From: Sediminibacterium sp.
GTDB taxonomy: Bacteria; Bacteroidota; Bacteroidia; Chitinophagales; Chitinophagaceae
DNA length: 64,000 nucleotides
Assembly (NCBI GenBank): GCA_041798205.1
Contig: JBHCAK010000013.1
Span: forward strand, 13,647-77,646
Direction of reading: 5' to 3'
Shown here: piece by piece, positions 5,406 through 14,573 of the stretch
Layout of the letters: each line of letters opens with the position of its first letter
How positions within the stretch are numbered: position 1 is the stretch's first letter
Position numbers and translations under genes: made by a program
The notes under the pieces: model-generated
Database searches by the model: none
Told to the model about the DNA's origin: nothing
Seen by the model: only the letters and a program-made list of their open reading frames with translations

Positions 5406-7148
5406 ATGTCAATATATATGAAGCCGCTCTTACGTTCTGCCATAGCTTTTGTATTGCTGGTGGCCCTCCTTGCTTCCTGCAAGCATCCTGTCCCCAAACA
5501 GGCCAAACTGATTCCGAAAACCGCATCGGTTGTTTTGGTATTGGATATCCAGGCCATGCAGGATAAGTTGCAGAAAGGAGGCATCAGTACCGACTCCCTG
5601 TTTGCTAAATTCTTTCGAAGTAACCTGGACGATTCGATCCATAAAGCAACACTGAATGATTTGCGCAACAATGCCGGCATTAACTGGAACGGCCAGCTTT
5701 ATTGTTTTACCGCGAATAAAAGCAGTGGCAAGGTTGGTGAAATGATCACTGTATTCAATGTATTGGGCAACCTGAGCGATCCGGCCAAATGGGAAGCTTT
5801 TCTGAAAAAGCAGGGTGAGCTGAAAGACAAGGAAATAAAAAAAGAGAATGGCTATTCTTATATATTACCTGAAAGCGGAACCATGGTATCCTGGAATGAT
5901 CATTATGTAATGGCCACTATTTACAACAGGAATATAAAACCCGTTTATGATTCGATAACGGGTAGTTTTAGAATGCCGGAAACAGGTAATAATACAGAGA
6001 GCCTGAAAGCAGAAGTGAGCAGTTATTATGCACTGAAAGAAGATGAGTCACTGGCAAGTGTAAACCTGTTCACCAACCTCTTCAGGGAAAAGGCAGACGG
6101 ATATGCTTTCACCAGCTCTAACAGCTACCTGGGCATGCTCAATATGATGCCGATACAATTACCAAAACTGGAAGAATTTGTGAAAGACAATTATTCTGCT
6201 TCCACACTCACATTTGAAGACGGGAAAATACTCGCCAAAACAACCAACTATCCCAACGAACTACTGAGTGCTTTGTGTAAACAATACCCCAGTCCCTCAG
6301 TGAACCTCTCTCTGGTAGATCACTTCCCCACACAGCATATCAACGGTTTCCTGCTTTTTGCTTTCAATCCCGAGATCATCAGTGGTTTACTGAAGCAGAT
6401 GGAAGTGGAAGGCATGGCTAACAACCTGCTTCAGAAATCGGGCCTTAGTACGGAAGATTTCTATAAAGCCATGAAAGGCGATATTGCTGTTATTGTGTCG
6501 GATATTGGTATGAAACAACCAGAGCCCCAAAACAAGACTGATGAGTTGAGCATGACGCGCAGTAAACCTTCGTATAAAATGATCGTGAACATTCCCGTAG
6601 GTGATAAGAACAGTTTTTTCAAACTGATGGACCAGGCAACACAACACGGAGTCGTAAACAGACAGGGTAATATATTCAAAGGCAGCGGGTTATTGTCTAT
6701 GTTCGGTTTATACCTGCAGGGCGATGAAAAGAACCTGGTACTGGCAAGCGATTCCCTTACTTATACCCAATATATTGCCGGTTTGGAAAAAGCTGCCATA
6801 CAGCCGGACATACTGAACAGATTCAAAGACAAAACCGGCGTATGTTATTTCGACATTGCACAAACCATCGGCAGCTTGTCTGCCGGTGATACTGCTTCCA
6901 GCTACCGGCAATCCATGACAACTGCAAGAGAAACTTTCAAAGACCTGATTGTTACCTCCGATAAATTCGACGGAAAATCATCACGTGCTATTTTTGAAGT
7001 GCGCATGCAGGATGAAAAGCAGAACAGCCTGGTAACCCTTACCAGTCTGCTGACTGATGTGGCAGTTGATATGCGTAAACAAGCCAGGAAAGAAAAAGCC
7101 CTGGATATTTTCCCCGGGGGAATGCCTGCGATCATCCGCACCAATTGA
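5406..7148 (+). CDS. DUF4836-like lipoprotein (start may be 5418)
   Basis: Lipobox LLASC after a hydrophobic stretch; IPKTASVVLVLD N-terminal pattern; first gene of an apparent three-gene unit. Confidence 0.7.
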   Translation: MSIYMKPLLRSAIAFVLLVALLASCKHPVPKQAKLIPKTASVVLVLDIQAMQDKLQKGGISTDSLFAKFFRSNLDDSIHKATLNDLRNNAGINWNGQLYCFTANKSSGKVGEMITVFNVLGNLSDPAKWEAFLKKQGELKDKEIKKENGYSYILPESGTMVSWNDHYVMATIYNRNIKPVYDSITGSFRMPETGNNTESLKAEVSSYYALKEDESLASVNLFTNLFREKADGYAFTSSNSYLGMLNMMPIQLPKLEEFVKDNYSASTLTFEDGKILAKTTNYPNELLSALCKQYPSPSVNLSLVDHFPTQHINGFLLFAFNPEIISGLLKQMEVEGMANNLLQKSGLSTEDFYKAMKGDIAVIVSDIGMKQPEPQNKTDELSMTRSKPSYKMIVNIPVGDKNSFFKLMDQATQHGVVNRQGNIFKGSGLLSMFGLYLQGDEKNLVLASDSLTYTQYIAGLEKAAIQPDILNRFKDKTGVCYFDIAQTIGSLSAGDTASSYRQSMTTARETFKDLIVTSDKFDGKSSRAIFEVRMQDEKQNSLVTLTSLLTDVAVDMRKQARKEKALDIFPGGMPAIIRTN

Positions 7149-7166
7149 TCTTTTCGGAACGCATAA

Positions 7167-7826
7167 ATGATAGCTATGGATATTGTATTGCAGCAGGTTA
7201 TTCCACTACCGTTAAAAGATAAATTGGTACAGAAACCGTCAGATGTATGGAATACCATCCGCACTTTCAAAGAAGGACAATGGATTAAGATAAAGGCTCC
7301 GAGTGGTACAGGCAAAACAACACTTGTGCATACCTTGTACAAGTTGAGGCACGATTACGAGGGCAGTGTATTATGGGGTGATCATCTGCTGACTGATGTT
7401 GAAGCAGCAGAACTGGCTTTTTTGCGCCAGCAAAAAATCAGCATTGTTTTCCAGGACCTGCGTCTATTCCCTCACCTCACCGCGTGGGAGAATATAGAGC
7501 TCAAAAGGGTTCTGCCCTCGCCCCTTTATTACGAAGCTGAAATGATCGATGTTATGGCAGCTGAACTGGGGGTGACAAATATACTTCACCAACGGGCAGG
7601 CCTGTGCAGTTATGGAGAGCAGCAACGCATAGCCATCATTCGCGCACTCATGCAACCTTTTGAATGGCTGATCATGGATGAACCTTTCAGTCACCTTGAC
7701 AAAGCCAACACTGCCAGGGCCGCTGCATTGATTGCGCACGAATGCAGCAAAAGAAAGGCCGGTTTTATTATAACTGATCTCGATGAAGATGCACATTTTA
7801 CCTATTCAGCTGAACTTAGTTTATAA
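7167..7826 (+). CDS. ABC transporter ATP-binding protein
   Basis: Walker A APSGTGKT, Q-loop IVFQ, signature CSYGEQQR, Walker B LIMDEPFSHLD. Confidence 0.92.
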   Translation: MIAMDIVLQQVIPLPLKDKLVQKPSDVWNTIRTFKEGQWIKIKAPSGTGKTTLVHTLYKLRHDYEGSVLWGDHLLTDVEAAELAFLRQQKISIVFQDLRLFPHLTAWENIELKRVLPSPLYYEAEMIDVMAAELGVTNILHQRAGLCSYGEQQRIAIIRALMQPFEWLIMDEPFSHLDKANTARAAALIAHECSKRKAGFIITDLDEDAHFTYSAELSL

Positions 7827-7843
7827 CAGGTTAGCATACCATC

Positions 7844-9040
7844 ATGGATAAACTGAAAAAATTATTAACCAAACTTATTCATTCAAGCGCCGGCCGGTCA
7901 CGTTTTGTAATGGCCGTTCTTGGACTGTCGGTAGCCATGGTATTGATACTTGCAGCAGTTCAGATACAGGTCAACTATAATGATCTCCTGCACAGCAAGA
8001 ATAACCAGGATAGTATTGCCAATTTCCTGGTGGTCAATAAACGGCTTACCGATCGTAATATTGGCGCCACTTCACTCTCCGATGCTGAGATTAATAATTT
8101 AAAACAACAGGCTTTTGTTCAATCTGTCGGATTGCTGACACCCAGCAGGTTCAAAGCATCTATTCAAAGCAATAGTGACCGGTTCCCTTTTTATACTGAT
8201 ATCGCATTTGAAAGTGTGCCCAATGAATTCATTGATGTAACCAGTAAAGACTGGCATTGGGAGGAAGGGTCTCAGTTTGTGCCGGTTATTGTACCCAATA
8301 TGTTCCTGGACTTTTACAATTTTCAGTTTTCATTTTCCCAAAGTCTTCCCCAGCTTACCCAACAGGTGGTAAAAATGATCATTTTCAAGATCAATCTTTA
8401 TGGTCCGGGTGGTATCACCAGTTTCCAGGGAAGGGTGGTGGGCTTCAGCGACCGGGTATCTTCCCTGCTGATACCACAGGAGTTCATGGATTGGGCTAAC
8501 CGCAATATGTCCGGCGGCGTACAGGTCAAACCGTCAAGGGTTATTATCAGGACTGCTGATCCGGGTAATCCTGCCCTGGTTGAGTTCCTCAAGAAAAACG
8601 GGCTGGGCACCGATGCCGATAAAACCCGTTTCAGCCGGTACCGGCAGGTAGTAGACCTGGTAGTGAATATTTCAGGTATAACTGGATTCGTGCTATTGTT
8701 ATTCGCCCTGCTTGTTTTTACCCTTTTTATTCAGCTTACCATTGCTTCCTGCAGTCGGGAAATCATATTGCTGATTACACTTGGGGCTGCTCCCAGGCAG
8801 TTGGAACGTTTTTTGATGAGTCGCTTCTTTCCGCCCAATGTATGGATAATAATGGGGTCTATTTTATTATTAACTGTTTTTCAATATATTACGTATAAAT
8901 TCCTTGAAAAACAGCACATATTTATCCATCCCTGGCCCTCTGTCTATACAATCCTTGCTGCGATTGTTTTACTGGTGGTAATAGGCTTGGTAAATCGTTT
9001 CAGTATCAGAAAACACATTAACAAAACAGGTTTTGAATAG
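7844..9040 (+). CDS. FtsX/MacB-like ABC permease
   Basis: One N-terminal TM, a large periplasmic domain, then three C-terminal TMs; directly follows the ATPase. Confidence 0.75.
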   Translation: MDKLKKLLTKLIHSSAGRSRFVMAVLGLSVAMVLILAAVQIQVNYNDLLHSKNNQDSIANFLVVNKRLTDRNIGATSLSDAEINNLKQQAFVQSVGLLTPSRFKASIQSNSDRFPFYTDIAFESVPNEFIDVTSKDWHWEEGSQFVPVIVPNMFLDFYNFQFSFSQSLPQLTQQVVKMIIFKINLYGPGGITSFQGRVVGFSDRVSSLLIPQEFMDWANRNMSGGVQVKPSRVIIRTADPGNPALVEFLKKNGLGTDADKTRFSRYRQVVDLVVNISGITGFVLLLFALLVFTLFIQLTIASCSREIILLITLGAAPRQLERFLMSRFFPPNVWIIMGSILLLTVFQYITYKFLEKQHIFIHPWPSVYTILAAIVLLVVIGLVNRFSIRKHINKTGFE

Positions 9041-9088
9041 AGTAGTCGGGTCAATTTTTCCACATTTTGGGGATAAAACTGCGGAAAA

Positions 9089-9107
9089 CACGGTATAAAA
9101 AACCGTG
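9089..9107. promoter_or_regulatory. 6-7-6 inverted repeat CACGGT-ATAAAAA-ACCGTG, candidate operator
   Basis: Perfect 6-bp arms in the intergenic region upstream of the lipoprotein/TCS cassette. Confidence 0.4.
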
Positions 9108-9334
9108 AAAAAACGTTAAAAATTCAGTGTTTTTATTTCACCCGGTTCCTTATTTCTTCCGAGTTTTGTAAAGACCGTAAATACACCTTGTAGGTTTTGA
9201 GCGTCTGTTTAGTCGTATTTCCGAAAAATCACTTATCTATTTTAACCAATACCTGTTGTTTAACCAGATAGGCACTATATTTTTAAATTTTAAAATTATC
9301 CTTGACATAACCGAAACCTAAAAATTTACTTTAG

Positions 9335-9829
9335 ATGAAAAAGATTAACTTAATGAGCGGCTTTATGATGCTCGCCGTGGTTGCTACGCTCTTCGTAGCC
9401 TGCCAAAAAGAGCAGAATGGCGTTTCTCCTCAGAATGGAACTGCTGCAGTTAAAGCAAATGAATCAGTTTCCGGCGTTGCTGTAAACGGTTCGGGTGTTG
9501 ACGGTTTCATTACTGGAGATGCTGCTACGCAAATGCACAATGCTTATGTGCAGGCAAACCCTAACGGTACACAGTATGTTGTTTTCAAGATCAAGGACCT
9601 GGAAGGATTCCTGCAGATATTGAAAAGCAAATTAAAATCTGACAACGTATATGTAAATTTTGGGGTATACACTGCTCAGACAGCTAATAATCCTGCCAAT
9701 ATTGGCAAGACGACTGTTTATTTTTCTGGTGATGACAACAGGGTGAAAAATGGTTCAGTACAAAGCAATGAGGTTGCACCAACAGCTACATCAACAGATT
9801 ATTTAAACCACGGAGGTATTTGGCCGTAA
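9335..9829 (+). CDS. small uncharacterised lipoprotein with C-terminal NHGGIWP
   Basis: Lipobox FVAC (Cys23) followed by QKEQ, a low-complexity linker and a compact domain; stop is 3 nt before the next ATG. Confidence 0.85.
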   Translation: MKKINLMSGFMMLAVVATLFVACQKEQNGVSPQNGTAAVKANESVSGVAVNGSGVDGFITGDAATQMHNAYVQANPNGTQYVVFKIKDLEGFLQILKSKLKSDNVYVNFGVYTAQTANNPANIGKTTVYFSGDDNRVKNGSVQSNEVAPTATSTDYLNHGGIWP

Positions 9830-9832
9830 TTC

Positions 9833-10495
9833 ATGGAAGCTACTATCTATTTGTATTTCCAAATAATTAGCCTCACTTTAGCGATCTTTTTTTATACAAA
9901 AACCCGGGATAAAATGCTTAAATATTTTATCCCGTTTTTGTTATTAACTGTAATCGTTGAATTGCTGGGTATTTGGTTTAGTTATAAGAGTATCAAGAAT
10001 TATTGGCTGTACAATATTTTTACATCCATTGAATTCATCTTTTATTCTTTCCTTTTCTATCTTCATTTCAGACGACCTGTCTTTAGGAAAATAGCATTGG
10101 GCTTTATTCCATTTCTTATTCTTTGTGATGTAATAAATCTTGCTTTTATACAGGGTACAAGGTATTTTCATACCTATACATTTTTGCTTGGCTCTTTTTT
10201 TATTGTCGTGTTCTGTTGTTTTTTCCTGTATGAATCCATCCTGCCAGAGCACATCAATCAGCACCTTTCCAAACAACCTTTCTTCTGGATCTGTATCGGG
10301 CTGCTCATTTTTTACCTGGGATCGGTTATTATCAATGCCTTATTTGAATATCTTCGAACGAACGATTTGCAGCAGGAAGGGAAGAAGATTTATGGCATTA
10401 TTAACCATACTTTAAATGTACTTTTGTACAGTTCATTCAGCGTCTCATTTTTTCTATGCCGAAACAACAGGAAGACATACTCATCACCATCGTAA
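9833..10495 (+). CDS. stand-alone polytopic membrane protein (~7 TM)
   Basis: About seven hydrophobic segments, NYWLYN and PFFWICIGLLIFY motifs, no cytoplasmic signalling domain; overlaps the kinase start by 40 nt. Confidence 0.8.
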   Translation: MEATIYLYFQIISLTLAIFFYTKTRDKMLKYFIPFLLLTVIVELLGIWFSYKSIKNYWLYNIFTSIEFIFYSFLFYLHFRRPVFRKIALGFIPFLILCDVINLAFIQGTRYFHTYTFLLGSFFIVVFCCFFLYESILPEHINQHLSKQPFFWICIGLLIFYLGSVIINALFEYLRTNDLQQEGKKIYGIINHTLNVLLYSSFSVSFFLCRNNRKTYSSPS

Positions 10496-11241
10496 TTGCT
10501 TCTGTATTCCTTGTACTGATTGGTTTCTTCCTTTTGCTCATTGTTTTTATCTTTCTGCGTCGTCAGCGGAAATTTCAACAGGAAAGAGATGAAATGAAAA
10601 ACCGTTTCGATCAAACGATCCTGAAAACCCAACTTGAGATACAGGAACAAACTTTCGGTCATATCAGTCAGGAAATACATGATAACATCGGACAGGTCTT
10701 AAGCCTGGTAAGGCTGAACCTTAGTACTTTCATGGATGGCGTTTCAGAAGATAAGTTTGAGCATACCGACCAGCTCCTGGGGAAAGCCATCAAAGACCTC
10801 CGGGACCTCAGCCATAACCTCCAGTCCAACCGTATCACCGACATTGGAATATTAGAATCAATTCGCCAATTAATGGCTACCTTGCAGAAGACGGGACGTT
10901 ATACTACCAGCCTGGAAATTGCGGATAGCTTCGCAGGGGTGAATAAAGATACAGACCTGATCCTCTTCAGGATGATACAGGAGATCATCAATAATATCAT
11001 CAAACATGCTTCTGCTACGGCCATTGATATAAAAATCGACGGCGACCCAACCAATACCCGGATAGTGATCACAGATAACGGGATTGGATTCGATACGGAA
11101 AAATTGAGAAAAACCGGGCATGGAATCGGTTTACAGAATATTTTTAACAGGGCAAAAATGATTCATGCAACTGTTGATATCAAAAGCACCCCCGGAAGCG
11201 GCACAGCTATTACCTTACAGATTAAACCCAACAGGCCTTAA
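10456..11241 (+). CDS. sensor histidine kinase (HisKA_3/NarX type) with a single TM and no sensor domain
   Basis: H-box ISQEIHDNIGQ, N-box QEIINNIIKHA, DNGIGF, GIGLQNI. Confidence 0.93.
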   Translation: MPKQQEDILITIVIASVFLVLIGFFLLLIVFIFLRRQRKFQQERDEMKNRFDQTILKTQLEIQEQTFGHISQEIHDNIGQVLSLVRLNLSTFMDGVSEDKFEHTDQLLGKAIKDLRDLSHNLQSNRITDIGILESIRQLMATLQKTGRYTTSLEIADSFAGVNKDTDLILFRMIQEIINNIIKHASATAIDIKIDGDPTNTRIVITDNGIGFDTEKLRKTGHGIGLQNIFNRAKMIHATVDIKSTPGSGTAITLQIKPNRP

Positions 11242-11243
11242 CT

Positions 11244-11891
11244 ATGACCCGAGTTGCTTTAGTAGATGACCATGAATTACTCCGATCAGGACTTGCTGCC
11301 ATCATCAATTCCTTTGATGGCTATAACGTTATTATGCAGGCAGGGAATGGTAGGGAGTTCATTGACCAGCTAGGCCAGGACAGTCCTCCTGACATTGTAC
11401 TGCTCGATATTACCATGCCCGTGATGGACGGCTTTGAAACAGCCGAATGGATCAAAAAAAACCTGCTTACCACCAGGGTACTTGTGCTGAGCATGCTGGA
11501 GAACGATATTGCTATTATACGCATGATGAAAAACGGTGCAAGGGGTTATTTGCTGAAAGACAGCAAGCCCAAAATATTCAAACAGGCGCTCGACAACATC
11601 CGCGATACCGGCTATTTTATCAATGAACTGATCAGCGATAAGCTTATGAACTATATCAGTAATGGCAATACTTTTGCCGTTAATGCCCCTTTCGGCTCTC
11701 TGTCAGACAACGAAGTGCATTTCCTGCGTCTTATCTGTTCAGATAAAACCTACAAAGAGATTGCGGAAGAAATGTGTGTAAGCCCCAGAACAGTAGATAG
11801 TTACCGCGATAACCTCTTCAAAAAACTGGATATTAAAACAAGGGTTGGACTGGCCATCTTTGCCATGAAACACAACCTGGTTGAAATGTAG
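11244..11891 (+). CDS. NarL/LuxR-family response regulator
   Basis: REC domain (LVDDH, LLDITMP) plus LuxR HTH (TYKEIAEEMCVSPRTVDSYRDNLFKKL). Confidence 0.95.
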   Translation: MTRVALVDDHELLRSGLAAIINSFDGYNVIMQAGNGREFIDQLGQDSPPDIVLLDITMPVMDGFETAEWIKKNLLTTRVLVLSMLENDIAIIRMMKNGARGYLLKDSKPKIFKQALDNIRDTGYFINELISDKLMNYISNGNTFAVNAPFGSLSDNEVHFLRLICSDKTYKEIAEEMCVSPRTVDSYRDNLFKKLDIKTRVGLAIFAMKHNLVEM

Positions 11892-11906
11892 TCAACATGG
11901 CAAAAT

Positions 11907-12167
11907 TTACGTGAGGCTTTCATCATCCCATTGCTTCTCTATGAAAGCGACGCAAAAATTCCCTTCACTTTCATAGTAATATGATTTTCGGGACCTTTCA
12001 TAACGAATAGGTGCACCGAACTCCCGCATAATAGCCAGGTATTCGAAAAGCGTGGTTTCCGACATCCCCATTTTTGCTGCAAAAACAGCAGGATTACCCG
12101 TTGCCTTTAACCTGATCATAAAATCGATCCGTTTCAGTTTATGAATAAACATACGTCCCATTCCCAT
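11907..12167 (-). CDS. small winged-HTH protein (HTH_11-like, no WYL domain); start probably near 12167 rather than 12218
   Basis: KRIDFMIRLKATGNPAVFAAKMGMSETTLFEYLAIMREFGAPIRY...SYYY pattern. Confidence 0.7.
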   Translation of the reverse strand: MGMGRMFIHKLKRIDFMIRLKATGNPAVFAAKMGMSETTLFEYLAIMREFGAPIRYERSRKSYYYESEGNFCVAFIEKQWDDESLT

Positions 12168-12275
12168 AACACGACATTTTTGTAAAGTCCAAATTAACAG
12201 GTTCCGGCTTTCCCGCAAACAGGTATAAATACCCCTTTTTTACATGCATCCGTATGAATTCAGTTAACTTAGCCT

Positions 12276-14573
12276 ATGCGTCTCTCCACCATTATCCTCT
12301 GCCTGTGCTTATCCATCATTCATCTGTCTGAAGCCCAGCCCCCACCCATTGGTTATTGGAGGGAACACCTTAACTACCGTTCTACCATCCAGGTATTAAA
12401 AGCCGACCAGCTCTACTGTGCCACTGCCACCAACTTGTTCGTTATAGATGCGAATGATGAAATGAACCGCTATAGCAAGATAAACGGCCTCAACGATATT
12501 GGCGTTCGCTGCATCGGTTGGGATGGAGCATCAGCTCAACTGGTTATCGCATACAACAATAGTAACCTGGATATTTTCAAACAGGGCTCAATAAAGAATA
12601 TCGGCGATATCAAACGCAGTACCATCACTGGTGACAAAACCATCAATCATATTTTCTGCAGGAATGGCTTTGCTTATTTATCCAGCAACCTGGGTATTGT
12701 TGTTGCTGACCTGAACAAGTACGAGATCAAAGACACCTGGTTCATTGGCGCTAGCGGTGCACAAGTGAAAGTAAACGCTGTTGCAGCCGACGCTTCGTTT
12801 ATTTACGCAGCCACAACAGAAGGGTTGAAAAAAGCGCCGCACAATACAGATCCATCAGATTACCATAACTGGATAACCCTCGGCAGCAGCAATGGCTTAC
12901 CCGGCGGAGCGTTTTCCAGTGTAGCAGTGATCAATAACCAGGTGATCACCCAACAAAAAGATTCTCTTTTCCAGTCCGCAGGTAATAGCTGGAACCTGCT
13001 CTATACCGATCCATCCTGGAACATTCTTTCCATCACAGCTTCAGAAAACAAGCTGATGGTTTGTCAGCAAAACAATGCAGGCATAGGGCGCGTGATTCAA
13101 CTATCAGCTGCCGGCAGTATAGAAAAAATCATTTCTGACCCTGCTTTACTCGTCAGGCCTTTATCAGCTATTGCTGATAGCGATAAATGCTGGATTGCAG
13201 ACAGCCTCCACGGACTCAGCAAGTTTTCTGCAACAGGGGTTACCCAATTCGTTCCTAATGGTCCCCCAGGTATTGCCAGTGGTGAAATGTCCAGCAATGG
13301 CCGGCAATTTTTTGCAGCTGCCGGGAGCATCAATGATGCTTGGCAATACCAGCGCAACCACAGCGGGGTTTTCCGGTTTTCAAATAATGAATGGAGTTTT
13401 TATAGGTTCGATAATACTCCCGCGCTAAGCAATATTTTCGACTTCATTACCGTCGCCATTGATCCTGTTGATCAAACAGCCTGGGCCGGTAGTTTTGGTG
13501 GAGGTCTCGTGCATTTTAAAAATGGGTTTTCAGCTGTTTACCAGGGCAGCAATAGTGCTTTGCAGCCCGCTTTAACAGATCCGAGGAGCTATAGGGTAGG
13601 CGGACTGGCTTTTGACCAACACAATAATCTCTGGATGAGTAATTATGGAGCGGCAAAGGAATTAGTGGTCCGCAAAGCAGATAGTTCATGGAAGGCTTTC
13701 ATCGTTCCATTCCTGCATGCAGAAAATGCTGCGGGACAGTTGTTGATTGATGATGCTGACCAGGTATGGATCATCAGTCCGAAAGGCAACGGTATTTTCT
13801 GTTACAATCATGGCCCTTCCATTGATAATACCAGCGACGATCAATGGAAATTCTACCAGCAGGGCAAGGGTAAAGGAAACTTACCCAGTAACACGGTATT
13901 GTGTATGGTAAAAGACAGGAATGGATTCATCTGGATAGGAACCGACAAAGGTATCGGCATTATACAATGCGCTGGCAATGTATTTGGATCGCAGGGATGT
14001 GATGCCTTATTGCCCGTTGTACAGCAGGATCGCTATGCCGGACTATTGTTCCGCAACGAAATAGTACAATGCATGGTAGTAGATGGTGCAAACCGGAAAT
14101 GGGTTGGAACCAAAAACGGACTTTGGCTGCTTTCACAGGATGGTACTTCCGTTGTTTACAGGTTTAACAGCGATAACAGTCCGCTTTTGAACAACGACAT
14201 CAAAAAATTGACCATTGATCCACTCACAGGCGAAGTGTTCATCGCCACTGCCGCCGGCCTCTGTAGTTTCAGAAGTACAGCTACTGAAGGGACTTCTATT
14301 AACCAGGATGTACTCGTATTCCCCAACCCTGTACCACCAGGCTATCATGGAACCATTGCCATCAGGGGCCTTGCCAATAATTCCCTCGTAAAAATTGCCG
14401 AATTGAATGGAAGGCTGGTCTACCAAACGCGTGCGTTGGGAGGCCAGGCCATTTGGGATGGACGTACTTACCTGGGCAACAGGGTAGCAAGTGGTATTTA
14501 CCTGGTCATTGTACGCAATGACACAGGCGATGAAAAGATCGTCACTAAAATTGCCATCACATCAGGTCGTTGA
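12276..14573 (+). CDS. porZ: PorZ-like T9SS component (beta-propellers plus T9SS C-terminal sorting domain)
   Basis: Signal peptide; WREHL start; repeated propeller blades (NNLW, DQVW, GFIWIGT, NRKWVGT); CTD VFPNPV...GIYLVIV. Confidence 0.8.
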   Translation: MRLSTIILCLCLSIIHLSEAQPPPIGYWREHLNYRSTIQVLKADQLYCATATNLFVIDANDEMNRYSKINGLNDIGVRCIGWDGASAQLVIAYNNSNLDIFKQGSIKNIGDIKRSTITGDKTINHIFCRNGFAYLSSNLGIVVADLNKYEIKDTWFIGASGAQVKVNAVAADASFIYAATTEGLKKAPHNTDPSDYHNWITLGSSNGLPGGAFSSVAVINNQVITQQKDSLFQSAGNSWNLLYTDPSWNILSITASENKLMVCQQNNAGIGRVIQLSAAGSIEKIISDPALLVRPLSAIADSDKCWIADSLHGLSKFSATGVTQFVPNGPPGIASGEMSSNGRQFFAAAGSINDAWQYQRNHSGVFRFSNNEWSFYRFDNTPALSNIFDFITVAIDPVDQTAWAGSFGGGLVHFKNGFSAVYQGSNSALQPALTDPRSYRVGGLAFDQHNNLWMSNYGAAKELVVRKADSSWKAFIVPFLHAENAAGQLLIDDADQVWIISPKGNGIFCYNHGPSIDNTSDDQWKFYQQGKGKGNLPSNTVLCMVKDRNGFIWIGTDKGIGIIQCAGNVFGSQGCDALLPVVQQDRYAGLLFRNEIVQCMVVDGANRKWVGTKNGLWLLSQDGTSVVYRFNSDNSPLLNNDIKKLTIDPLTGEVFIATAAGLCSFRSTATEGTSINQDVLVFPNPVPPGYHGTIAIRGLANNSLVKIAELNGRLVYQTRALGGQAIWDGRTYLGNRVASGIYLVIVRNDTGDEKIVTKIAITSGR

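Follow-up and report, generated by a model that had tools for sequence, protein, structure and literature searches.

A four-gene Bacteroidota cassette pairing a sensor-less histidine kinase with a stand-alone seven-helix membrane protein and a small protein

A cassette of four genes in Sediminibacterium sp. belongs to a real and widespread signalling unit of Bacteroidota, the invariant core of which is a small protein, a stand-alone membrane protein with seven predicted transmembrane (TM) helices (hereafter the 7TM protein) and a histidine kinase with a single helix. The cassette lies in a 64,000-nucleotide stretch of contig JBHCAK010000013.1 (hereafter the window; positions refer to its first letter), where four co-directional open reading frames (ORFs) on the + strand (Table 1) encode a lipoprotein of 164 amino acids (aa), a 7TM protein of 220 aa, a minimal histidine kinase of 261 aa and a response regulator of 215 aa. 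What is new here is an auxiliary-protein-dependent form of two-component sensing, built from two undescribed protein families and widespread in Bacteroidota. On balance, the module is probably a three-component sensor plus a regulator, in which the kinase receives its input from the 7TM protein and the small protein is an accessory subunit.

Many two-component kinases lack a sensor domain, and the route by which signals reach them has long been in question. In the present case, the kinase family occurs in a fifth of the sampled Bacteroidota genomes, often in multiple copies, and comes with two fixed partners. No description of the module was found in the literature, and for the two partner families we found no family description, no solved structure and no literature. 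Defining the module would annotate thousands of "hypothetical" genes and add a type of bacterial receptor, and it could reveal an envelope or environmental cue monitored by soil, freshwater and marine Bacteroidota. Its strict architecture and a short invariant tail on the small protein provide simple experimental handles.

A recurrent module in Bacteroidota genomes

The four genes are separated by a 3-nucleotide (nt) gap, a 40-nt overlap and a 2-nt gap, and this tight coupling in the ORF reading matches exactly what had been described in the initial annotation, which was made from the letters of the stretch. Three such cassettes, including the window copy, are found in the Sediminibacterium genome. 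The small protein of the second cassette (C18:76398-78998) has no signal peptide and ends with ...QYPLCPPNCSPGGALL, and that of the third (C4:324415-327762) ends with PPYNSGQGMP. Minimal kinases of ~261 aa, the core of which begins at about residue 55, number only three in this genome, and all three follow a 7TM gene. A family-wide hidden Markov model of the small protein also matches only three genes in the genome, each located directly upstream of a 7TM gene. As a side observation, two tandem 7TM genes precede the kinase in the third cassette (C4:324949-326367), and tandem or triple 7TM genes are also present in loci of other genomes (L113, L122, L141, L154 and L164), which suggests hetero-oligomeric receptors.

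Furthermore, the 7TM family extends across the phylum. A profile search of 1.84 billion representative proteins, clustered at 50% identity, detected about 3,200 clusters at E <= 0.001, 931 of them at E <= 1e-10, with nearly all members ~215 aa long. Of 401 Bacteroidota genomes sampled, 86 carry the family, which reaches 55 of 178 genera and up to 7 copies in a single genome. In all of the first 30 diverse loci sampled (30/30) the order is 7TM, kinase and regulator. In the 401-genome sample, the kinase starts at the end of the 7TM gene in at least 80 of 91 loci, and three of the remaining loci are truncated by the locus boundary. The small-protein gene stops 1-40 nt before the 7TM start throughout the phylum. 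Co-occurrence of the lipoprotein and 7TM genes with two-component genes elsewhere had been set as a check in the initial annotation, and it holds both in the three cassettes of this genome and in the distant loci.

The kinase partner is not always of the same type. In other Bacteroidota classes, it is a TM-PAS-HisKA-HATPase_c protein of 520-690 aa, again with a single N-terminal helix, and the constant feature is therefore "7TM plus single-helix kinase" and not one kinase subfamily. At ~215-220 aa, the 7TM protein itself stands alone in every locus examined and in almost every one of the top 150 representatives, and no fused 7TM-kinase form is found among these 150.

For the window cassette, orthologues were collected from 80 species-level genomes, mostly Sediminibacterium and other Chitinophagaceae, and a recognisable lipoprotein gene is present in 72 of the loci. 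For the 7TM protein, a word-seeded search returned over 335 close relatives (>=59% identity), vs 21 for the lipoprotein. In one Sediminibacterium genome (L069:3700-3990), the lipoprotein gene is cut to a remnant (...YFNHGSI-stop) and the regulator gene is also missing; the 7TM and kinase genes remain. This looks like a joint decay of the module.

Table 1. Features of the four-gene cassette and its upstream region, in window positions.
Feature	Position	Strand	Basis or detail
Candidate operator, AAAACACGG-N9-CCGTG, inverted repeat CACGG/CCGTG	9085..9107	+	AAAACAC and the GT of CCGTG invariant in 7 species
Candidate Bacteroidota-type -7 promoter box, GAGTTTTG	9161..9168	+	TTTG (9165-9168) invariant in 7 upstream regions
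Gene 1, 164-aa lipoprotein, undescribed small-protein family	9335..9829	+	ORF; 72 orthologues directly upstream of 7TM gene
Lipoprotein signal peptide and lipobox (LFVA-C23), then QKEQ	9335..9403	+	Sequence reading; 72/72 orthologues
Compact alpha/beta core (helix, strand, helix, strand, strand), residues ~50-135	9482..9739	+	AlphaFold2, pLDDT about 90
C-terminal tail L-N-H-G-G-I-W-P, family hallmark	9803..9826	+	N, H, G and terminal P invariant
Gene 2, stand-alone seven-helix protein, undescribed family	9833..10495	+	AlphaFold2; lysine/arginine bias
Terminator-like hairpin (12-bp stem, 6-nt loop) and T-run in the 7TM ORF	9905..9944	+	Stem-loop 9905-9934
Gene 3, minimal histidine kinase, 40-nt overlap with gene 2	10456..11241	+	Pfam
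Kinase domains	TM helix 10480-10557; HisKA_3 10660-10827; HATPase_c 10960-11229	+	Pfam; TM from hydrophobic helix
Gene 4, NarL/LuxR-type response regulator	11244..11891	+	REC 11253-11591; GerE helix-turn-helix 11697-11864; Pfam, NCBIfam

The kinase, the seven-helix protein and the small protein

The kinase of the window begins with about 8 residues, followed by one hydrophobic helix (residues ~9-34), an RRQRK stop-transfer segment and then directly the kinase core, composed of HisKA_3 (residues 69-124; PF07730, E 2.5e-07, 31.6 bits at a cut-off of 24) and HATPase_c (residues 169-258; PF02518, E 2.9e-15); the H-box reads EIHDNIGQ. The regulator carries a receiver domain (PF00072, E 4.1e-23) and a helix-turn-helix domain (PF00196, E 4e-13), and its best NCBIfam models are of the UvrY/NarL type, scoring below the equivalog cut-offs. 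Together they make a HisKA_3/NarL-type two-component pair. That the kinase has one TM segment and no sensory domain, as had been read from the letters, agrees with Pfam and with the single hydrophobic helix. Because only this helix and about 8 periplasmic residues precede the core, the kinase has no sensing of its own outside the membrane.

The 7TM protein is predicted by AlphaFold2 to form seven helices, with a predicted local distance difference test score (pLDDT) mostly above 90. It carries no output domain, and no match was found for it in Pfam, NCBIfam or the sequences of the PDB, in line with the earlier description of an approximately seven-helix protein without an output module. The lysine/arginine bias (8.6 inside vs 2.7 outside on average, consistent in 100 of 102 members) places loops 1, 3 and 5 and the C-terminus inside, so that the N-terminus lies outside. 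Family members retain an overlap between the 7TM gene and the kinase gene, mostly in the range of -4 to -67 nt. With the 7TM C-terminus inside and the N-terminus of the kinase helix outside, a direct or frameshift fusion would misplace the kinase, and this is why the two are kept as separate genes. A programmed frameshift joining them was ruled out by the same topology, since with an eighth helix the kinase would end up outside the cell.

In a broad alignment of the 7TM family, near-invariant positions are L36, E43 in the middle of helix 2, F151, W152 and Y199, and two segments are also well kept, FIQG in an outer loop and P-x-F-W on the inner side. Among polar residues, only the buried Glu, E43, is near-invariant family-wide; the alignment contains no catalytic-type motif, and no transporter or enzyme family is matched. 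A Foldseek search with a 386-aa fusion model (see below) gave G-protein-coupled receptors (GPCRs) for nearly all of the top 50 hits, which are weak (E 0.013-0.5, TM-score <=0.44, root-mean-square deviation 6-8 Å). The 7TM protein looks receptor-like, not enzyme-like. These features bear on the idea that the 7TM protein is an enzyme or transporter, the activity of which is monitored by the kinase as in the flux sensing of BceAB-BceS. Sensing through a partner transporter is established for kinases of Bce-type systems, and an ABC ATPase and an FtsX-type permease are encoded directly upstream of the cassette in the orthologous loci. The ABC/FtsX genes are, however, absent beside both paralogous cassettes and in the distant loci, and with E43 as the sole near-invariant polar residue in a protein matching neither transporters nor enzymes, flux sensing is extremely improbable.

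Seven-helix modules that feed a histidine kinase are known as 7TMR-DISM (PF07695), which are common in Bacteroidota, and a kinase of this type is also encoded in this Sediminibacterium genome. There, the 7TM part is fused to the kinase, usually after a large extracellular domain, whereas here it is a separate protein of 220 aa. A sequence relationship between the two is not demonstrable: 1 of 65 members of the family matches 7TMR-DISM_7TM (E 0.0028), and hhalign of the family against that model gives a probability of 16% (E 0.0016, 149 columns in register). Two minor observations on the 7TM protein may be added. All orthologues carry a Cys at the cytoplasmic end of helix 7 (C209). A single member of the representative search (P0186, 461 aa) bears a 250-residue cupin-like N-terminal extension before the 7TM part, which may be a gene-call merger or a rare fusion.

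The small protein of the window has a lipobox, and the lipobox Cys is kept in all of the 72 species-level orthologues, mostly followed by QK[EDA]. In Bacteroidota, a signal for surface export, K-(D/E)2 or Q-A-(D/E)2, has been described just after the lipidated Cys (PMC5080379). The sequence C-Q-K-E-Q of the window departs from it in having one acidic residue after K, and the orthologues read CQKEQ, CQKDQ or CQKAE in this region. The initial annotation was thus right in calling the resemblance partial, as it was about the length of 164 aa and the NHGGIWP terminus. AlphaFold2 predicts that residues 24-47 and 140-153 are disordered tethers on the two sides of the compact core. No relative of the window protein was found in Pfam, NCBIfam or the PDB sequences, seven diverse members of the family gave no match in Pfam/NCBIfam, and the core domain found no PDB structure at E<0.6 with Foldseek.

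The C-terminus, ...YLNHGGIWP in the window, is the best-conserved part of the lipoprotein. Conservation of an N-x-G-x-x-x-P motif had been named as a check in the initial annotation; indeed, [LFM]-N-H-G-x-[ILVM]-x-P stands at the end of 71 of the 72 orthologues, and N158, H159, G160 and P164 are invariant in an alignment of 75 sequences with a mean column identity of 36%. The stretch just before the tail is variable and predicted disordered. Across the phylum, the tail takes the form hydrophobic-N/D-x-G-x-hydrophobic-x-P(P), for example, PMNYGNIGRPP, QNHGGLIPP, YDLGGLKP and FDIGNLWP. There is also an alternative Cys version of the tail, C-P-P-x-C included, with examples such as NRGVLCPTEC, NHGGLCPP, PCPPFC and PCPPWC, so that the variant given earlier as N.G..CPP does exist. 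Where the tail is of the Cys type, the 7TM partner has a Cys at column 208 in 24 of 42 cases, an association confounded by phylogeny. Co-variation of the tail with the 7TM loops had also been named as a check, and here the mutual information between tail class and 7TM columns proved uninformative: the top columns are scattered clade markers, and the outer loops contain no Cys.

The tail was at first taken for a possible signal: in an Agr/Com-like scheme of cell-cell or contact signalling, the lipoprotein or its C-terminal peptide would be a self-made signal and the 7TM protein its receptor. The cassette does group a signal-like gene with genes for a membrane protein, a kinase and a regulator, AgrBDCA and ComQXPA likewise combine a small precursor gene with these three kinds of partner, and ComP/ComA of ComQXPA are also of the HisKA_3/NarL type. 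The distinct tails of the three paralogous cassettes (YLNHGGIWP, PPYNSGQGMP and ...QYPLCPPNC...) could then serve as orthogonal channels. However, AgrC and ComP have a polytopic sensor of their own, where this kinase has one helix; AgrB and ComQ are processing enzymes, and the signals of those systems are hypervariable, where the tail here is the most conserved part of the protein over 72 species. The cassette contains no gene for processing, modification or export, and none of its four genes shows similarity to peptidases or prenyltransferases, although sequence cannot exclude a cryptic peptidase role of the 7TM protein. Moreover, the window protein is lipid-anchored to the membrane, about half of the small-protein family has no export signal, and docking of the small protein to the 7TM protein is not predicted by AlphaFold2. 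Peptide or contact signalling is thus highly improbable, and this part of the initial annotation is not supported; the cassette looks like an envelope sensor rather than a cell-to-cell peptide system.

Signal input and the role of the small protein

The most economical reading of a sensor-less kinase in this pairing is that the 7TM protein is its detached input partner, as proposed at the outset. Gene arrangement, domain content, predicted topology, co-occurrence, tail conservation and paralogy are the observations from which we infer a physical complex, the direction of information flow and the role of the small protein. Most likely, the 7TM protein lies packed against the kinase helix within the inner membrane. 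The input would come from this protein, which could have a pocket facing the periplasm or could report on the condition of the membrane or envelope, and the kinase would phosphorylate the NarL/LuxR-type regulator and thereby change transcription, likely including that of the cassette itself through a conserved upstream repeat. The small alpha/beta protein, here a tethered lipoprotein, is most likely an accessory subunit that acts as a co-sensor or modulator in the manner of SaeP, and probably not a released signal.

Several points weigh against this arrangement. In its own clade, the whole neighbourhood of the cassette is syntenic: the order DUF4836, ABC ATPase, FtsX permease, spacer, lipoprotein, 7TM, kinase, regulator and PorZ recurs over the 80 genomes. 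Synteny there reflects vertical inheritance, and it is the paralogues and distant loci that carry the argument for a module. No natural fusion of the lipoprotein and the 7TM protein was found among close relatives, and when a read-through query was searched against a collection of 5.8 billion proteins, it matched with its 7TM half only (51-59% of the query). Two apparent fusions, in L014 and L078, were discarded as artefacts of masked N-runs. The two ORFs of the window are in the same frame with TAA-TTC between them, and this allowed a co-folding test in which AlphaFold2 was given the in-frame read-through fusion (window:9335-10492, TAA read as Q) with an alignment of 96 rows, 20 of them paired and 76 unpaired. 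The 7TM bundle is confident in this model, and neither the domain nor the tail docks on it, the tail having a pLDDT below 50, although the artificial link of 2 residues may itself bias this outcome. In a model of the lipoprotein alone, the tail forms a short strand against its own domain (pLDDT 62-67), and its conservation might thus be purely structural.

The main puzzle left by this reading is the mixed export of the small proteins. Among 86 homologues of the small protein, a signal peptide is lacking in 45; another 29 carry one or an anchor, and the remaining 12 are lipoproteins. The trait switches at least 15 times on a maximum-likelihood tree of the 7TM proteins even when only well-supported branches are counted, and some well-supported sister pairs differ, yet the 7TM topology does not vary. 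It is hard to see how a single docking site on one face of the 7TM protein could serve all members of the family. An inverted topology of the 7TM partners of signal-less small proteins was considered as a reason and rejected on the uniform lysine/arginine bias (100/102).

A more specific arrangement, which we regard as distinctly unlikely, is that the small protein is a tethered ligand, the tail of which plugs a periplasmic pocket of a GPCR-like 7TM receptor and so switches the single-pass kinase. The disordered residues flanking the domain, about 33 on one side and about 17 on the other, would let the lipoprotein reach across the periplasm when anchored in the outer membrane; engagement of the tail would then signal the spacing or integrity of the envelope, and a hairpin within the 7TM gene would set the ratio of ligand to receptor. 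If true, this would be a new class of two-component receptor and a bacterial parallel to tethered-agonist receptors. A flexibly tethered lipoprotein that reports envelope state to a signalling protein of the inner membrane is familiar from NlpE-CpxA and RcsF-IgaA of Enterobacteria. The Cys pairs of NlpE loosely resemble the C-P-P-x-C tails, but the proteins are unrelated, the lipoproteins are encoded outside the kinase operon and no seven-helix partner is involved.

The reading of a detached input partner with an accessory subunit may be compared with systems in which extra proteins act on a minimal kinase. The closest characterised layout is that of saePQRS in Staphylococcus aureus, where a lipoprotein, a membrane protein, an intramembrane kinase almost without an extracellular part and a regulator are encoded in the same four-gene arrangement, and the two extra proteins act on the kinase (PMC5083920, PMC3748130). 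The statement in the initial annotation that no characterised example exists was thus too strong, since saePQRS has this layout, made of unrelated proteins. It belongs to another phylum and envelope type, and SaeS/SaeR are of the HisKA/OmpR type whereas the present pair is HisKA_3/NarL. In the present cassette, the membrane protein seems to be an obligate partner, its translation coupled to that of the kinase, and the hallmark tail has no counterpart in SaeP. SaeQ is not known to be a seven-helix protein.

From this likeness one may suppose that the small protein and the 7TM protein are a feedback pair of the SaePQ kind, which would push the kinase toward phosphatase activity and reset the system after induction; neither would perceive the stimulus, such as membrane perturbation, which would act on the kinase helix. 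This is rather unlikely, although the gene order and protein types match those of saePQRS (PMC5083920, PMC3748130), the conserved upstream repeat suggests autoregulation, and the hairpin after gene 1 would permit separate dosing of the first gene. The sae kinase and regulator remain functional when SaePQ is absent, and kinases of this sort are also found by themselves; in contrast, the minimal kinase is accompanied by a 7TM gene in 3 of 3 cases in this genome and is rarely without it elsewhere, and the two genes are coupled by their conserved overlap, which indicates an obligate partner. The proteins of genes 1 and 2 are unrelated to SaeP and SaeQ as judged from the absence of family matches, no direct pairwise comparison being involved.

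By the class of kinase and regulator, the closest systems are LiaFSR and VraTSR of Firmicutes, in which a HisKA_3 kinase with minimal sensing and a NarL-type regulator are controlled by an adjacent accessory membrane protein (PMC3543457, PMC10269926). LiaF, however, is not a seven-helix protein and has a family domain of its own that is absent here; the 7TM protein has no family match, the LiaF family included, and its predicted topology is of seven helices. LiaS has two helices and a HAMP domain, no small tail-bearing partner is present, and the order of the accessory gene differs. SaePQRS and LiaFSR are therefore analogies, not homologies.

Upstream region, intragenic hairpin and surroundings

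Upstream regions from 7 related species were aligned, and the region of the cassette contains a candidate operator and a candidate promoter box (Table 1). The Bacteroidota -7 promoter consensus is TAnnTTTG. A sigma-70 promoter scan gave nothing above chance. Beside the candidate operator, further GTG/CAC repeats lie in the conserved block at window 9076-9170, and a comparable CGGG-A5-CCCG palindrome is found upstream of the paralogous cassette on C18.

Within the 7TM ORF, 70 nt past its ATG, a terminator-like hairpin and T-run were detected. The minimum free energy (MFE) at this position is -17.8 vs a gene median of -3.4, and half of the orthologues (35/70) fold at <= -10 there. The MFE alone is not unusual, since 35% of the GC-richer genes of this genome reach values as low. 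The stem covaries at synonymous sites, where Arg codons CGG/AGG pair with Pro codons CCG/CCT (AU 32, CG 6), and Asn/Asp codons pair with Ile codons (AU 26, GC 9, UA 4). None of 500 shuffles reaches the observed pairedness, covariation score or count of cells changed on both sides; in slid controls, the pairedness is lower and the covariation score is not. A clade including L049 has a different stem, of 17 bp, at this position. In the 7TM genes of the whole phylum, the strongest local hairpin lies within the first 120 nt in 32 of 53 strong cases, for example, a perfect 25-bp stem in L139 and a 16-bp stem in the C18 paralogue. The hairpin may be an attenuator or a 3'-end hairpin which uncouples the expression of gene 1 from that of the 7TM, kinase and regulator genes.

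Such an uncoupling would also suit another role of the small protein, as the main induced output of the system with an envelope-protective or stress function like that of LiaI/LiaH, the 7TM protein being a LiaF-like inhibitor of the kinase. The small-protein gene comes first in the operon, downstream of the candidate operator, the hairpin just after it would yield a short and abundant transcript, and a role independent of the compartment would tolerate gain and loss of the export signal. We nevertheless hold this to be very unlikely: an 85-residue domain, a strictly conserved terminal motif and the one-to-one pairing with 7TM paralogues make a cognate subunit more likely, and no similarity to the PspA or LiaH families was found in Pfam or NCBIfam.

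The cassette had also been described as lying in an AT-rich stretch. This is real but limited to the 7TM gene and its upstream spacer: the guanine-plus-cytosine (GC) content of the 7TM gene is 0.336 vs 0.451 for the genome, in the lowest 1.4% of 660-nt windows, and the lipoprotein, kinase and regulator genes lie close to the genomic average. The four 7TM paralogues of the Sediminibacterium genome all have a GC content of 0.33-0.35, and the low value therefore reflects a protein rich in Phe, Ile, Tyr and Lys, and not a foreign island or recent transfer.

The surroundings of the cassette offer several minor observations. Genes for DUF4836, the ABC ATPase and the FtsX-type permease (window 5406-9040) lie directly upstream in essentially all of the 80 orthologous loci, and PorZ, of type IX secretion, lies downstream. 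None of these genes stands beside the paralogous cassettes. The neighbourhood may be a target of regulation, or it may simply reflect vertical inheritance of the gene order. Between the regulator and PorZ, a small convergent ORF on the - strand (window 11907-12218) resembles a helix-turn-helix protein and is limited to the nearest relatives L001, L020 and L080. A candidate shared motif, TGCGG(A/G)AAAnnCGG, matches twice in the window (9080-9093 and 12204-12217) and was rejected, as 16 of 100 shuffles also give two matches; the second match falls inside the called start of the convergent ORF. Public runs labelled "RNA?" were likewise set aside as evidence for transcription of the operon, since they yield contigs of 7-28 kb with flat depth and genome-identical sequence and are DNA-like. 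Window 8700-12500 is covered in the public runs X1, X12, X13 and X19 of one host-like "organism A", and the bacterium or its DNA is a regular passenger in samples of this organism.

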